A DNA stretch of 64,000 nt from Escherichia coli. GTDB taxonomy: Bacteria > Pseudomonadota > Gammaproteobacteria > Enterobacterales > Enterobacteriaceae. Below are positions 21,555 to 58,557 of this stretch, piece after piece. The DNA is taken from assembly GCF_013122565.1 (NCBI RefSeq), contig NZ_CP053258.1; one strand, given 5' to 3'. A model generated the notes under the pieces. That model saw only the letters and a program-made list of their open reading frames with translations. It ran no database searches and was not told where the DNA came from. The position numbers and the translations under genes were made by a program. Numbering within the stretch: position 1 is the first letter of the stretch; each line of letters begins with the position of its first letter.

Positions 21555-23240
21555 GTGAATATAAACGTCGCCGAATTGTTAAATGGGAATTACATTCTGT
21601 TATTATTTGTGGTCCTCGCGCTTGGGCTATGTCTCGGAAAGTTACGACTTGGTTCGATCCAACTGGGTAATTCCATTGGCGTTTTAGTCGTATCGCTGTT
21701 ATTAGGCCAACAACATTTCAGCATTAACACCGACGCGCTTAATCTTGGCTTTATGCTGTTTATTTTCTGCGTCGGGGTCGAAGCCGGACCGAACTTTTTT
21801 TCCATTTTTTTTCGCGATGGGAAAAATTACCTAATGTTAGCACTGGTGATGGTTGGCAGTGCGCTGGTGATCGCCTTAGGGTTAGGTAAGCTGTTTGGCT
21901 GGGATATTGGCCTGACGGCCGGTATGTTAGCCGGCTCTATGACGTCGACACCGGTTCTGGTCGGTGCTGGCGATACACTGCGTCATTCCGGCATGGAAAG
22001 CAGGCAGCTCTCACTGGCGCTGGATAATCTGAGCCTCGGCTATGCCTTAACCTATTTAATCGGTCTGGTGAGTTTGATTGTTGGTGCGCGTTACTTGCCG
22101 AAATTGCAGCATCAGGACTTACAGACCAGCGCCCAGCAAATCGCCCGCGAACGTGGCCTGGACACTGATGCCAACCGTAAGGTTTATTTACCGGTGATCC
22201 GCGCCTATCGCGTCGGCCCGGAGCTGGTGGCCTGGACCGACGGCAAAAATCTGCGTGAACTGGGTATTTATCGACAAACCGGCTGCTACATTGAACGTAT
22301 TCGACGTAACGGGATTCTGGCAAATCCAGACGGTGATGCCGTGCTACAAATGGGCGATGAAATAGCGTTAGTAGGCTATCCCGACGCCCATGCCCGACTC
22401 GATCCCAGCTTCCGTAACGGTAAAGAAGTTTTCGATCGTGACCTTCTCGACATGCGTATCGTCACTGAAGAAGTGGTCGTTAAAAACCATAACGCTGTAG
22501 GTAAACGTCTCGCACAACTGAAGTTGACCGATCACGGTTGCTTCCTTAACCGCGTCATTCGTAGCCAGATTGAGATGCCGATAGATGACAACGTCGTGCT
22601 TAACAAAGGTGACGTTTTACAAGTCAGCGGCGATGCCCGCCGCGTAAAAACCATCGCCGATCGCATCGGCTTTATCTCGATTCACAGCCAGGTCACTGAC
22701 CTGCTGGCATTCTGCGCCTTCTTTGTTATTGGGCTGATGATCGGGATGATCACCTTCCAGTTCAGCACATTCAGTTTCGGCATGGGGAACGCTGCCGGGT
22801 TGTTATTCGCCGGAATTATGCTGGGCTTTATGCGTGCTAACCACCCGACCTTCGGTTACATTCCGCAAGGTGCATTAAGCATGGTGAAAGAGTTCGGCTT
22901 GATGGTGTTTATGGCAGGCGTTGGTCTGAGCGCCGGTAGCGGTATTAATAACGGCCTGGGCGCGATTGGCGGTCAAATGTTGATTGCCGGATTGATTGTC
23001 AGTCTGGTGCCCGTGGTTATCTGTTTCTTGTTCGGTGCTTATGTATTGCGAATGAACCGCGCACTGTTGTTCGGCGCAATGATGGGCGCACGCACCTGCG
23101 CGCCGGCAATGGAGATCATCAGTGATACAGCTCGCAGTAACATCCCGGCGCTGGGCTATGCGGGCACCTACGCAATCGCCAACGTCCTGCTGACGCTGGC
23201 AGGGACAATCATCGTCATGGTATGGCCAGGATTAGGATAA
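21555..23240 (+). CDS. ybjL: putative transport protein YbjL (AAE family, TrkA-C domains)
   Basis: 561-aa ORF (V/M)[19 protein letters not shown]..., probable GTG start. Confidence 0.9.
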
Positions 23241-23475: not shown

Positions 23476-23694
23476 TCAAAGAGAGAGCGCCACCTGTCCT
23501 GATTTCATTGGATGCGGCTGAACCGGATTTGACTCTTTTGGCGTTGCAATCGAACGAACAAAAGTTTCATGGGTAACAAAAGTATGGCTGCAGTTAATGT
23601 TCTGGCACTGGTTGTAACGCTCTTTGGTCAATGAAGATACCTGAAAACTGCTGCGAGTATGGGCGGCACTTCCACACAGTGGGCAAATCATCAT
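23476..23694 (-). CDS. ogr: Ogr-family zinc-finger late transcription activator
   Basis: MMICPLCGSAAHTRSS...CQNINCSHTF Cys4 pattern like P2 Ogr. Confidence 0.85.
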   Translation of the reverse strand: MMICPLCGSAAHTRSSFQVSSLTKERYNQCQNINCSHTFVTHETFVRSIATPKESNPVQPHPMKSGQVALSL

Positions 23695-23784
23695 TTTTCG
23701 AGTTCTCCCCATTTTTGCTAAATTCACAATAATGATACCGCATTATTCCATTTTGCAAACTTAAAAGTTCTCCATTGCGAAGAA

Positions 23785-37701: not shown

Positions 37702-38136
37702 CCAGCGCAATAATACATCGTGGGTTAAGGATTCTACGTCATCATTAATACCTAACAAACGACGCTCTGCGTAACGGACCTCCGGTCCTTTGCGACTAAC
37801 GCGATCACGCAGGCCGTAATGGTGAACACGGGCAATACGCTGCACCTTGCCTTCAAACTGTACGCTGGCAGAGTCGGCGCTGGCGGCAGTTTTCAGGTAT
37901 TTTGTGGTGCGCAGCTTTGCAAACATCTGACGTTTGATGCGCCCCTTCTTGCTACGTGCTGTTACCCTGCGCGGTTCATAACTGCTGCCATCTGGATTGC
38001 GCTGCATCCTGATATTCTGCTGCTGTGTCCGGCGCAGTTCCTGCGCCAGCTGGCGCATCATGCGGCTTCTCGTGGCTGGTTCCAGATTCGCCAGCAAGGC
38101 ACTCAGCCAGTCGTCCACCTTCTGCAGTTCAGCCAC
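37690..38136 (-). CDS. S: tail completion protein S
   Basis: 148-aa ORF at P2 S position. Confidence 0.8.
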   Translation of the reverse strand: MAELQKVDDWLSALLANLEPATRSRMMRQLAQELRRTQQQNIRMQRNPDGSSYEPRRVTARSKKGRIKRQMFAKLRTTKYLKTAASADSASVQFEGKVQRIARVHHYGLRDRVSRKGPEVRYAERRLLGINDDVESLTHDVLLRWLSN

Positions 38137-54195: not shown

Positions 54196-54705
54196 TCACA
54201 GCAAACCGAATGAAGCACCGAGGCCAGTCACGGTATCAACTGCACTCGCCATCGCAGGGTTAGCCTGTAAACGGGCCTGCAATGAAACAGCAGCCAACGC
54301 CATCAGTCGTGTTACAGAGTTAATGCTGCTGATAGCATCACGACGACCTGCACTGGTTTTTACATCGCCAGATACCGCACCTGCAGCAACACGCCCGATC
54401 TCTGCGGTTGCACTCATGACGTAATGTGGCAGTTTCTCTTTTGCCACCTCATTAATCGGTACGCATGGCAGGCAGTGAATCTGAGCCAGAAAACCATCTA
54501 CCAGCGTTGAATCTTCAGTCAGATCGGTAAGCAGCCAGATTTCTGGTGCGGTTAATAAATGAGGTTGAGCCGGGTTCAGCTTGTTCCGCAGAATCTGCAC
54601 ATTCATGCCAGCACGTTCTGCCAGTTGCACCAGGTTGTGGCGCAGCGCGAATGCACGACAGGCTTCATCAAAATGTGGATGTTTGGAAACTTGGTAATCA
54701 AACAT
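54196..54705 (-). CDS. B: replication protein B-like
   Basis: [25 protein letters not shown]... at gene B position. Confidence 0.7.
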
Positions 54706-54737
54706 GGTCGACACCTCTGATGTATCCCAAAATGGAA

Positions 54738-54959
54738 CTAGTTGAATACAACATTGCAATCAGTAAGTGCATCAACGGTAAGAGCAGCAAGGTTGATCAT
54801 TACTTTTTCTCTTTTCTTGTCTTTACGAAGACGATGCCGAGGAATGCGACCATCCGCCAACATATCGTTGATTGTGTCGATTGAAAGACCAGTAAGTTCG
54901 CTATAACGCTCGATTGTGACGTGTGGCGTATTCAGAGTTATTGAAATGTTAGGGGTCAT
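54738..54959 (-). CDS. Apl/Cox-like excisionase and transcriptional regulator
   Basis: 73-aa ORF, first gene of lytic operon, divergent from cI. Confidence 0.6.
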
Positions 54960-55009
54960 GATGCAACATCTCCTATTGGCTTGTGGTGAGCCTGTAGTAA
55001 TCGCGACAA

Positions 55010-55025
55010 GTACCCAATTGGGTAC
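55010..55025. promoter_or_regulatory. perfect 16-bp palindrome GTACCCAATTGGGTAC in immunity switch region
   Basis: Between divergent apl/cox-like and cI starts; candidate operator. Confidence 0.5.
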
Positions 55026-55054
55026 AAAACTGATACTAGGATCGCAAAAGAGAT

Positions 55055-55651
55055 ATGTCAACATCAAAGTACCCAAGTGAGATCAAAATAAATCCCAATA
55101 AAGGTGGTAAGGCTGCGATTGAGCGATTAGTCGAAGCCTATGGCTTTACGACACGACAGGCTTTAGCTGATCACTTGGAAGTATCAAAAAGCACACTAGC
55201 GAACAGGTATTTGCGGGATACATTTCCTGCTGACTGGATAATCCAATGTGCTCTTGAAACAGGAACCTCCCTCAAATGGTTAACTACCGGACAAGGCCTT
55301 AAGCAAAGCTCGCTGACAGCAGCTACAGAAGAGCTTGTTAAGTTTCGCCTTGCCGCAGGCAAAATGATTGAAGACGGTTCATATGTCTTCGATTCATCAT
55401 TTCTTCCTGCAAACCTTTCATCACCAATTGTTATTCAGGATGGACTCGTCACATACATTTGTGATCAAAAATTTTCTGAAGTACTTGATGGAAACTGGTT
55501 AATCAATATCGACGGAACCTATTCCATTCGAAAAATCACAAGGCTTCCTAAAGGAATGATTAAAATTACAACAGCAGAGAATAGCTTTGAATGTGCATTT
55601 TCTGATATTGAAGTGGTTGCTTGTATAAGAAGTACAATAGTCTCGAATTAA
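55055..55651 (+). CDS. cI: CI-type immunity repressor (186-like)
   Basis: 198-aa ORF, HTH N-terminal region; divergent from lytic operon. Confidence 0.75.
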   Translation: MSTSKYPSEIKINPNKGGKAAIERLVEAYGFTTRQALADHLEVSKSTLANRYLRDTFPADWIIQCALETGTSLKWLTTGQGLKQSSLTAATEELVKFRLAAGKMIEDGSYVFDSSFLPANLSSPIVIQDGLVTYICDQKFSEVLDGNWLINIDGTYSIRKITRLPKGMIKITTAENSFECAFSDIEVVACIRSTIVSN

Positions 55652-55671: not shown

Positions 55672-57348
55672 ATGAATTCATTTGCCATCGTTATACTCTT
55701 ATTAGCATTTCTCGCCCCTGTTCTAGCTGTAATATTATTTAAACAAAGTAAAAAACACAAAGCGGCTATAGATAACCTGACAGCTAACAACATAGCCCTT
55801 TCTAACCAACTGATTGAAAATCAAGAAAAACTAGCACAGACCGTACGAGAATTATCAGATCTTGAAGGGCGAGCAGCACCATTGTGGCAATACGAAGAAT
55901 TGCACAGCGCAGTAATGGATGCAGAGAATAAGATAAAAAATGCGGACTCAATAGCCAAGCAAAAAATAGATGAAGCCCAAATTAAGGCGGCTAAAACAGT
56001 AAACGAAGCAAATTATCAAGCTCAGATAACAATAAGCAACGCTAATAGCGAAGCTATAGCAATCACCAAAGACGCTCGCGATGCACGCCTGAAAGCCAAA
56101 GAACGTCTTGATAATGCTAATAATAAAGCAAATGAGCTAATCTCAAATGCTAATGACAATGCAGTAAAAATTATTTCTGATGCAGAAGAAAGAGCAAAGG
56201 AGATTGCTGGTTCAGCATATGAAGCTAAAGAGTTTGCAGAAAAATATGAAGCAGTTGCAAAATCAATGAAAAATAAAATTGAAGGTTATGGTGATGAATG
56301 GATCATCCCTAACCGTAGTGTACTTGATGAGCTGGCAGAAAATTATGAATTTACAGATGCAGGCAAGGAATTACAAAAAGCCAGAGAGTTAACCAAATCA
56401 TTAATAAAAACTAATAAAGCTGCTTCGTGTGATTATGTTGAGCAAAACAGGCGTAATACTGCCATAAACTTTGTTTTGGATGCCTTCAATGGAAGAGTTG
56501 ACAGTATTTTATCAAAAGTCAAACACAACAATTTTGGAAAACTTTCCCAAGAAATAAAAGATGCATTTCAACTAGTAAATTACAATGGCTCTGCCTTTAG
56601 GTCCGCAAAAATAAGTGACATCTATCTTCAGGCAAGACTCAACGAGCTAAAATGGGGTGTAGCAGTTAATGAAATTATGCTCGAAGAAAAAGAAGAGCAA
56701 AGAAGGATTAAAGAACAGCTTCGTGAAGAGGAAAGAGCTCGTAGAGAATATGAAAAAGCGATAAAAGAAGCTGAAAAAGAAGAAAAAGCTATTCAGCAAG
56801 CTATAAATAAAGCAACGAAAGAACTTATGCTTGCAAATGAAGAACAACGCTTAGCTTTAGAGCAAAAAATAGCTGAACTACAGTTAAAATATGAAGAAGC
56901 TGAAGCTAAAAATCAACGAGCTATTTCTATGGCTCAACAAACCAGATCAGGCCACGTCTATATCATTAGTAATATTGGTTCATTTGGCGAAGATGTATAT
57001 AAAATTGGAATGACACGCCGCCTTGAACCACTTGATCGTGTTCGTGAACTCGGAGATGCTAGTGTTCCTTTTTCGTTCGATGTTCATGCGATGATTTATA
57101 GTGATGATGCACCATCATTAGAAAACCATCTGCATAAAGTTTTCAACGAAAAGCAGGTCAATAAAATTAACTCACGAAAAGAGTTTTTTAACGTAAATTT
57201 AAAAGAAATCAAATCAGTTATTGAAGACATGAACATCAACGCCCACTGGACAATGTTTGCAGAGGCGAAAGAATATAGAGAGTCTCTAGCTATTGAGCAG
57301 GAGCGCAAAGCAGCCACTTCCGCCAACGATGAACTACATGTTGCTTAG
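55672..57348 (+). CDS. membrane-anchored coiled-coil protein with C-terminal T5orf172/GIY-YIG-like domain
   Basis: 558-aa ORF; N-terminal TM; long coiled-coil repeats; C-terminal GHVYIISN...YKIGMTRR...RVRELG; about 37% GC; between cI and int. Confidence 0.65.
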   Translation: MNSFAIVILLLAFLAPVLAVILFKQSKKHKAAIDNLTANNIALSNQLIENQEKLAQTVRELSDLEGRAAPLWQYEELHSAVMDAENKIKNADSIAKQKIDEAQIKAAKTVNEANYQAQITISNANSEAIAITKDARDARLKAKERLDNANNKANELISNANDNAVKIISDAEERAKEIAGSAYEAKEFAEKYEAVAKSMKNKIEGYGDEWIIPNRSVLDELAENYEFTDAGKELQKARELTKSLIKTNKAASCDYVEQNRRNTAINFVLDAFNGRVDSILSKVKHNNFGKLSQEIKDAFQLVNYNGSAFRSAKISDIYLQARLNELKWGVAVNEIMLEEKEEQRRIKEQLREEERARREYEKAIKEAEKEEKAIQQAINKATKELMLANEEQRLALEQKIAELQLKYEEAEAKNQRAISMAQQTRSGHVYIISNIGSFGEDVYKIGMTRRLEPLDRVRELGDASVPFSFDVHAMIYSDDAPSLENHLHKVFNEKQVNKINSRKEFFNVNLKEIKSVIEDMNINAHWTMFAEAKEYRESLAIEQERKAATSANDELHVA

Positions 57349-57430: not shown

Positions 57431-58486
57431 ATGGCAGTACGAAAACTAACCACAGGGAAATGGCTTTGCGAATGTTACCCCGCCGGACGTAGCGGACGCC
57501 GTGTGCGTAAACAATTCGCCACCAAAGGCGAAGCACTGGCCTTCGAGCGATACACCATGGGGGAAATAGAAGCAAAGCCCTGGCTGGGCGAATCAGTGGA
57601 TCGTCGGACACTGAAAGATATGGTTGAGCTATGGTTCAAATTACATGGCAAATCTCTTACTGCCGGACAGCATGTCTACAACAAGCTGCTGTTGATGGTT
57701 GACGCCTTGGGAAATCCCCTTGCAACTGATCTCACCTCAAAAATGTTTGCTCACTATCGCGATAAACGCCTTACTGGTGAAATCTACTTCAGTGAAAAAT
57801 GGAAGAAAGGAGCAAGCCCAGTTACTGTTAACCTGGAGCAAAGCCATCTAAGCAGCGTTTTCAGAGAACTTTCCCGCCTGGGTGAATGGACACTTCCAAA
57901 CCCATTAGAGAAGATGCGCAAATTCACTATCGCAGAAAAGGAAATGGCATGGCTTACACATGAGCAGATTATCGAATTACTGTCTGACTGCAAACGTCAG
58001 AACCCAATTCTGGCACTGGTGGTAAAAATATGTCTAAGTACAGGCGCACGTTGGCGAGAAGCAATCAATCTTACCCGCTCACAGGTCACCAAGTACCGAA
58101 TCACCTTTGTGAGAACGAAGGGGAAGAAAAACAGAAGCATCCCTATCAGTAAAGAGCTTTATGAAGAGATCATGGCGCTCGATGGGTTCAATTTCTTCAC
58201 AGACTGCTATTTTCAATTTTTATCCGTGATGGAAAAAACGTCTATCGTTCTCCCTCGCGGTCAACTGACACACGTTCTGCGCCATACGTTTGCGGCGCAC
58301 TTCATGATGTCGGGTGGAAACATCTTGGCCTTACAAAAAATTCTCGGACACCACGATATAAAAATGACTATGCGTTATGCGCATCTGGCACCGGATCATT
58401 TGGAAACGGCGCTCCGTTTCAATCCACTGGCAACGTTACCAAATGGCGACAAAGTGGCGGCAGCGGTTGGCATTACCCCGCAATAA
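57431..58486 (+). CDS. int: tyrosine integrase (P2/186 family)
   Basis: 351-aa ORF with R..HxxR..Y catalytic pattern (TGARWREA...LRHTFAAHF...MRYAH). Confidence 0.85.
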   Translation: MAVRKLTTGKWLCECYPAGRSGRRVRKQFATKGEALAFERYTMGEIEAKPWLGESVDRRTLKDMVELWFKLHGKSLTAGQHVYNKLLLMVDALGNPLATDLTSKMFAHYRDKRLTGEIYFSEKWKKGASPVTVNLEQSHLSSVFRELSRLGEWTLPNPLEKMRKFTIAEKEMAWLTHEQIIELLSDCKRQNPILALVVKICLSTGARWREAINLTRSQVTKYRITFVRTKGKKNRSIPISKELYEEIMALDGFNFFTDCYFQFLSVMEKTSIVLPRGQLTHVLRHTFAAHFMMSGGNILALQKILGHHDIKMTMRYAHLAPDHLETALRFNPLATLPNGDKVAAAVGITPQ

Positions 58487-58557
58487 CCACCACTGACCAC
58501 CACATTAAGTTATTGTTTTTTATCTAACTTATTGTTTTTATTAACCCATTTAGATAA

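Follow-up and report, generated by a model that had tools for sequence, protein, structure and literature searches.

A palindrome at the predicted lytic promoter start of a 186-like Escherichia coli prophage is probably an operator for its CI repressor

The genetic switch of a P2/186-like prophage (Peduoviridae) of Escherichia coli contains a perfect 16-bp palindrome between the immunity repressor gene, cI, and an apl/cox-like gene, which raises the question of what reads it. The prophage lies in a 64,000-nucleotide stretch of DNA, which we call the window. The original prediction named the palindrome as an operator for CI or for the Apl/Cox-like protein; that it is an operator and that CI is its ligand are both very probable, given its linkage to cI and a core in common with phage 186, whereas Apl is an unlikely ligand. 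Specifically, we propose that the palindrome, here O1, is in all likelihood the best-matching operator of the prophage's own 186-type CI, placed at the start of the lytic promoter pR. The promoter starts, the binding of CI, its cooperativity and its effect on transcriptional interference are what we infer from sequence. O1 is most likely a component that a switch of this familiar type would be expected to have, rather than an element of a novel class.

The switch is 99.7% identical to that of Escherichia phage vB_EcoM-813R9 and 95% identical to that of Klebsiella phage KP12, and a 221-bp segment around the palindrome is matched in 396 of 5,426 complete E. coli genomes. It is flanked by two genes.

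55055-55651, + strand: cI, encoding a 198-aa 186-type immunity repressor with an N-terminal HTH domain and a C-terminal oligomerisation domain (Pfam and PDB homology).
54738-54959, - strand: apl/cox-like gene, 73 aa, the first gene of the lytic operon (PHROG 575, Cox-like excisionase and repressor).

The cI product matches Phage_CI_repr (PF07022, E = 8e-32) and Phage_CI_C (PF16452, E = 3e-27) in Pfam and aligns with the 186 CI structure (PDB 2fjr) over residues 21-189 (E = 5e-27), while the apl/cox-like gene carries the annotation 'Cox protein' in vB_EcoM-813R9. The two genes diverge, and the 95-bp gap between them holds the palindrome. The Pfam, PDB 2fjr and PHROG 575 matches thus bear out both the predicted location in a cI/apl switch region and the names given to the genes. 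Beyond this pair, cII follows the apl/cox-like gene, and a 558-aa gene and then int lie downstream of cI. The 558-aa gene (55672-57348, + strand) matches the PD-Lambda-1 anti-phage defence protein (PADLOC, E = 3e-120), carries the Pfam domains DUF4041 and T5orf172/MUG113, and is annotated 'chromosome segregation ATPase' in the closest phages. Because it sits directly downstream of cI, it may be expressed from the lysogenic promoter pL in the lysogen. The att site of 186 is of the ileY type; the window contains no tRNA gene, so an att of this type is not applicable here.

The palindrome itself is the starting point of the argument.

55010-55025, unstranded: O1, proposed main CI operator, perfect dyad GTACCCAATTGGGTAC (proposed from symmetry, conservation, 186 core and cI linkage).

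As predicted, GTACCCAATTGGGTAC equals its own reverse complement, with arms of 8 bases each and no further extension. A perfect 16-bp palindrome somewhere in 64 kb is unremarkable, and the window holds three against 1.05 expected from dinucleotide-preserving shuffles. It is the location that makes GTACCCAATTGGGTAC unusual; about 0.0016 such palindromes are expected in the 95-bp cI/apl gap (1.05 x 95/64000). The remaining two, ATCCTTTATAAAGGAT and TGCGCCAGCTGGCGCA, are found at 2378-2393 and 38042-38057. The exact 8-mer GTACCCAA has three copies in the whole window, counting both strands, and all fall inside 55010-55076 (67 bp). When scored with a symmetric matrix made from 11 O1 variants, O1 itself reaches 26.2 bits. 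A literature search on the 16-mer, its core and the near-palindrome of 186 found no phage paper.

What the palindrome could regulate depends on where the promoters lie, and two were predicted around it.

-35 TTGACA 55061-55056, 17-bp spacer, -10 TAGTAT 55038-55033, - strand: pR, predicted lytic promoter (10/12 consensus matches).
-35 TTGAAA 54941-54946 (within apl codons), 17-bp spacer, -10 CAACAT 54964-54969, + strand: pL, predicted lysogenic promoter (186 homology).

The -35 hexamer of pR overlaps the cI ATG, and its leftward transcripts are predicted to start at about 55025. TTGACA-17-TAGTAT is the only strong sigma-70 match in a consensus scan of 54600-55400; its hexamers are kept across the family, and the same layout recurs in the related locus L068, in Escherichia phage Cartapus and in Klebsiella phage Kp4847-2. 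The scan of the same interval missed pL, as expected of a weak promoter. Here the guide is 186, in which the annotated pL has its -10 just outside apl and its -35 within apl, facing pR. The annotated sequence (TTGCGA-17-CATGAT) aligns with TTGAAA-17-CAACAT of the window and places the pL start at about 54975, opposite the annotated 186 start; L068 has TTGATA-17-CAAAAT at this position. With these predicted starts, the palindrome would span about +1 to +16 of pR, a 10/12-consensus promoter kept in relatives, and about +36 to +51 of pL. We therefore depart from the original prediction on geometry. The promoters were described as divergent, but the strong pR points leftward from the cI side and the homologue of 186 pL points rightward from the apl side, so that the two are predicted to face each other with starts about 50 bp apart. 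Nor is the palindrome central between them, as had been proposed, but at the pR start end of their overlap. A face-to-face arrangement of pR and pL is known in 186 and other P2-like phages (PMC7498355, PMC3448106).

Conservation was assessed by scanning IMG/VR with the CI protein, which gave 80 loci at 100-47% identity, 61 of them with a window-type switch; these 61 yielded 39 distinct gap-free haplotypes. O1 is kept as GTnCCCAnnTGGGnAC in the 39 haplotypes, with the consensus GTnCCCA-nn-TGGGnAC. Positions 1, 2, 4-8, 11-13, 15 and 16 are invariant or nearly so, and variation is concentrated at the symmetric pair 3/14 and the central base 9, as would be expected if a dimer reads the dyad. GTCCCCAAATGGGAAC is the commonest form, and the perfect palindrome occurs in only 3 of the 39 haplotypes. 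The dyad symmetry of the arms is conserved, then, and its perfection is not. Constraint extends well beyond O1.

54960-55099, unstranded: 140-bp block under DNA-level constraint (intergenic region and first 15 cI codons), containing the predicted pL start, O1, pR, O2 and O3.

At third-codon positions, cI codons 1-15 show 0-4 minor alleles of 39, and codons 16-40 mostly 10-22. The block is highly conserved as a whole, so that site-specific constraint is only partly separable from constraint on the promoters and leader. At its cI end lies the half-site-like ATCCCAAT (55092-55099, cI codons 13-15), whose third positions are frozen too; it lies at a distance of 22 bp from the centre of O3, and no partner arm is apparent.

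Two further candidate sites, O2 and O3, lie within this block.

55039-55054, unstranded: O2 candidate, degenerate dyad GATCGCAAAAGAGATA in the pR spacer (weak, proposed from alignment to the 186 central operator).
55069-55084, unstranded: O3 candidate, GTACCCAAGTGAGATC, an exact left half-site with the right arm TGAGATC (cI codons 5-10, about pR -44 to -59).

The O2 candidate GATCGCAAAAGAGATA aligns with the central operator of 186, ATCTCCCAATTGAGAGAT. The pR spacer around it is nearly invariant, with a single commonly variable column (55047) beside the O2 dyad centre, and L068, Cartapus and Kp4847-2 have clear dyads at the O2 position. O3 starts 59 bp from O1 and holds the third exact copy of GTACCCAA (at 55069), and its right arm resembles the TGAGAGA arm of 186; its one commonly variable base, 55077, is the second of its two central bases. 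The three commonly variable columns 55018, 55047 and 55077 thus belong to the central dinucleotides of O1, O2 and O3, whose centres at 55017.5, 55046.5 and 55076.5 are spaced by 29 and 30 bp. Beyond O1, the 11-variant matrix brings out only two sites in the window, O3 with 11.4 bits and 58435-58450 with 12.9 bits, against a mean of 12.8 for the best shuffled hit.

Scans of the window with the O1 matrix and the core found no significant equivalent of FL or FR, the distal operators that flank the 186 switch at a distance of about 300 bp. One sequence in the gap between apl and cII may nevertheless be considered.

54722-54738, unstranded: possible FR-like distal site, GTATCCCAAAATGGAAC (apl/cII gap; uncertain).

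GTATCCCAAAATGGAAC agrees with the commonest O1 variant at 12 of 16 positions, and FR of 186 is annotated at the same location. It is kept in the family while its flanks vary, and it is kept also in phages with another type of CI. It overlaps the -10 of pE, as placed by offset from 186, so a promoter -10 fits too. The 10-mer CAAAATGGAA has only two exact copies in the window. One (54728-54737, + strand) is in this apl/cII gap, the site of the FR operator and the pE -10 in 186, and is family-conserved between variable flanks; the other (23746-23755, - strand) is upstream of an ogr/B-like late activator gene (23476-23727). In 186, CI also binds pB, upstream of the late activator gene. CAAAATGGAA could represent a second class of CI site or a common promoter element. 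Other candidates were set aside. The degenerate core C[ACT]CA-NN-TG[GTA]G occurs five times in the window, two of them in the switch, but pairs no more than 60 bp apart also arise in 28 of 300 shuffles, and we do not use it as evidence. Cores with one mismatch at 54913, 55275 and 55458 are at chance density (94 per 64 kb). Within apl, ACGCTCGATTGTGACG (54906-54921; ACGCTCAATTGTGAC[A/G] in most relatives) fits the degenerate operator core 104 bp from O1; it is coding sequence and present with either type of CI, and is probably coincidental.

Natural swaps between switches show which gene the palindrome accompanies. An identical Apl (100%, 74/74 positions including the stop) is encoded by L003, L004, L069 and L072-L085, a set of Klebsiella-type relatives that includes Klebsiella phages ST11-VIM1phi8.4 and 4LV2017, all without the palindrome. 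Apl therefore works without it. Their agreement with the window stops at about 55007, where the palindrome has its left edge; beyond that point come a tandem-HTH CI and other operator-like repeats (cTTCACAtttcGG..., GGATCACAaatcGG...). Conversely, all single-HTH loci with the recognition helix SKSTLANRY of the window retain O1 and O3, even though identity in the C-terminal domain of CI falls to 27-44%. Linkage to cI could partly reflect physical proximity. The loci L068 and L071 have an unrelated Apl (14/74 identical) and a single-HTH CI whose recognition helix, SKSTMANRY, is almost that of the window. L068 has three sites that fit the pattern with zero mismatches, GTTCACATCTGGGTAC, GTCCACATATGGGAAG and GTTCACAGATGGGTAC, with centres 30 and 29 bp apart; around its TTGACA-17-TAGTAT promoter they occupy pR +1, the spacer and the opening codons of cI. 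The layout is the same in L071, where the first site differs by one variant base.

More distant switches follow a similar plan with other sequences. Cartapus (L086, 437-451) has its own perfect 15-bp palindrome, ATCTTGATTCAAGAT, in the pR spacer, and in Kp4847-2 (L088, 408-453) the 16-mers ATTCAATATTTGATAC and ATCCAATATTTGATAC occur at a spacing of 30 bp, one immediately past the -10 and one within the spacer. Like the window, the switches of L068, Kp4847-2/SopEPhi and Cartapus place a TTGACA or TTGACG -35 at or beside the cI start; the -10 is TAGTAT in L068 and Kp4847-2/SopEPhi and TAATGT in Cartapus. All have phage-specific dyads at pR +1, in the spacer or at both. Their operator sequences differ from that of the window, so these phages are presumably heteroimmune, and the recurrence of the positions hints at a three-position operator layout common to the 186-type family.

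The tandem-HTH switches have features of their own. Their CI (for example L003, 1849-2784) is 312-323 aa long, with the helices SQSTMANRY and SKSTLANRY, and their pR region has asymmetric repeats of the TTCACA-nn-TCGG type, which could be read by both HTH domains of one CI chain. Another tandem-HTH CI, in L045 and L046 (about 1510-1525), has the near-perfect palindrome GTCCCCAATTGGGAAC in the coding sequence of its inter-domain linker, a position equivalent to O3 of the window (cI codons 5-10). This suggests that an extra HTH may have been added upstream of the ancestral cI start and operator.

Could the palindrome instead be bound specifically by the Apl/Cox-like protein, so that pR and pL would both be repressed from a site lying between them? 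We consider this very unlikely. The palindrome does fall in the interval from the predicted pL start to that of pR, which in 186 is bound by Apl (annotated at 23056-23123, from pR -7 onward), and the weak matrix hit at 58435-58450 (12.9 bits) falls near the int end, close to the expected att. Shuffled sequence, however, yields best hits of about that score, the palindrome is missing from phages whose Apl is 100% identical, and L068 has a site of this type despite its unrelated Apl. In 186, monomeric Apl recognises 6-bp direct repeats spaced by 10-11 bp, not a dyad, and requires three or more adjacent ones (PMC7498355), whereas the window element is a single inverted repeat. Because 186 CI reads inverted repeats and 186 Apl direct repeats, the dyad fits CI rather than Apl. 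Non-specific spreading of Apl over the palindrome DNA is possible.

A role at the RNA level, with the palindrome forming a terminal hairpin that stabilises or regulates the 5′ end of the pR (apl) transcript, strikes us as highly improbable. Such a hairpin is physically plausible. The predicted pR leader has a folding energy of -21 kcal/mol (z = -2.94), and in this fold the palindrome makes a 6-bp stem at the extreme 5′ end, at least three G-C pairs are kept in every variant, and in the pR RNA positions 3/14 form a G-U wobble in the commonest variant and C-G in one variant. Yet 3/14 can pair in only 23 of the 39 haplotypes, where allele frequencies alone predict about 49%, and there is no significant compensatory signal; on the pL strand, pairing at 3/14 is limited to 6 of the 39, and the structure of the pL leader is unexceptional (z = -1.07). 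In L068, the corresponding site pairs poorly (by pairing count) yet fits the half-site pattern, O3 is equally constrained without hairpin symmetry, and hairpin potential is inherent in any dyad operator. The hairpin could be a secondary property of the O1 site. We regard as extremely improbable that the palindrome arose by chance, or is a passenger in a conserved leader, and has no specific function. Three perfect 16-bp palindromes in the window where about one is expected, perfect symmetry in just 3 of 39 haplotypes and conservation of the whole region would be compatible with this; against it stand the expectation of about 0.0016 in the 95-bp gap, the additional exact half-site 59 bp away, the symmetric variation, the 186-like core and the analogous sites that presumably heteroimmune relatives have at the same promoter positions.

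As the main and most likely the strongest CI operator, O1 would be bound by a CI dimer through two HTH domains, one on each GTnCCCA arm. A CI oligomer, proposed because the C-terminal domain is 186-like, would bind cooperatively at O1, O2 and O3, occupy pR from about -59 to +16 and keep RNA polymerase out. Shutting off pR would silence apl-cII-replication transcription in the lysogen and should also relieve transcriptional interference on the weak pL that faces it some 50 bp away, as in 186. Transcripts from pL would have to read through the CI-bound sites to reach cI; the weakness of 186 CI as a roadblock to elongating polymerase makes this plausible (bioRxiv 10.1101/2021.10.29.466366). The pR operator spacing of about 30 bp, found with the CI of the window, of L068 and of Kp4847-2/SopEPhi, might mean that the CI oligomer engages DNA in another register than in 186, although we hold this idea only tentatively and think it rather doubtful. 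That register would be the geometry of 'three turns per dimer, about 180 bp wrapped' which Wang et al. 2013 raised to account for their wrapping lengths (PMC3675496). If the 30-bp spacing is real, such switches, together with the tandem-HTH CI on an identical Apl/leader, would be test cases for the operator phasing of wheel repressors. More broadly, a concrete putative operator, GTnCCCA-nn-TGGGnAC, can be assigned to the immunity type of hundreds of E. coli genomes, the promoter geometry is corrected, and a testable three-site model is given. The value lies mainly in annotation and in the comparison of CI 'wheel' repressors, and what is known of the switch mechanism is unchanged.

The closest known system is that of 186. 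Both have a homologous repressor, an inverted-repeat operator and sites over the lytic promoter beside the cI start codon; pR and pL are face-to-face in both, and apl, cII and int are in the same order. The CI operators at the pR of 186 were described by Dodd and Egan 1996 (as cited in PMC3675496), and 186 CI recognises inverted repeats of two types via one HTH (PMC1904268). In the GenBank record of 186 (NC_001317), 23011-23067 (57 bp) is annotated as 'three binding sites for CI repressor', and the near-palindrome ATCTCCCAATTGAGAGAT is exactly central in this region. Comparison with the 186 operators, which the original prediction had put forward, gave a divided answer. The core C-CAATTG-G is common to the window palindrome and ATCTCCCAATTGAGAGAT, but the outer arm bases differ (GTAC in the window, TCTC in 186), as expected of different immunity. 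The best site is predicted at pR +1 to +16 in the window and is in the spacer in 186, where the annotated CI region ends near pR +5, which puts O1 further downstream than any operator annotated in 186. Candidate operators are spaced 29-30 bp apart in the window against the two helical turns reported for 186 (PMC3675496). The intergenic gap is 95 bp in the window and 129 bp in 186, whose similar but less compact layout has the pR -35 15-20 bp outside the cI start codon instead of overlapping the ATG. Unlike 186, the window has no clear FL and has the PD-Lambda-1 gene inserted between cI and int.

The operators of 186 Apl and P2 Cox resemble O1 in lying between two facing promoters in a P2-like switch, and a homologous small HTH excisionase-repressor is encoded in the window. 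Those operators, however, consist of short direct repeats at intervals of one helical turn, to which monomers bind, and they recur at att. The window element is one dyad, and it does not follow the apl gene from phage to phage. Elsewhere in the window, ACCACCAC-TG-ACCACCAC directly after the int stop (58486-58503) forms direct repeats 10 bp apart, and the apl-linked part of the switch has CACCACA and ACTACA 11 bp apart on the minus strand (54982-54998). Both pairs are candidates for direct repeats of the Apl type, the first at att and the second at the switch, though only suggestive ones. The C operators of P2 have the same role as that proposed for O1, in that an immunity repressor blocks the early promoter of a P2-like switch. 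P2 C is a 99-aa protein unrelated to 186-type CI and binds two direct repeats (PMC2995052, PMC1904268). The two switches would thus differ in their means, with C and direct repeats in P2 and a 186-type CI and a dyad in the window.
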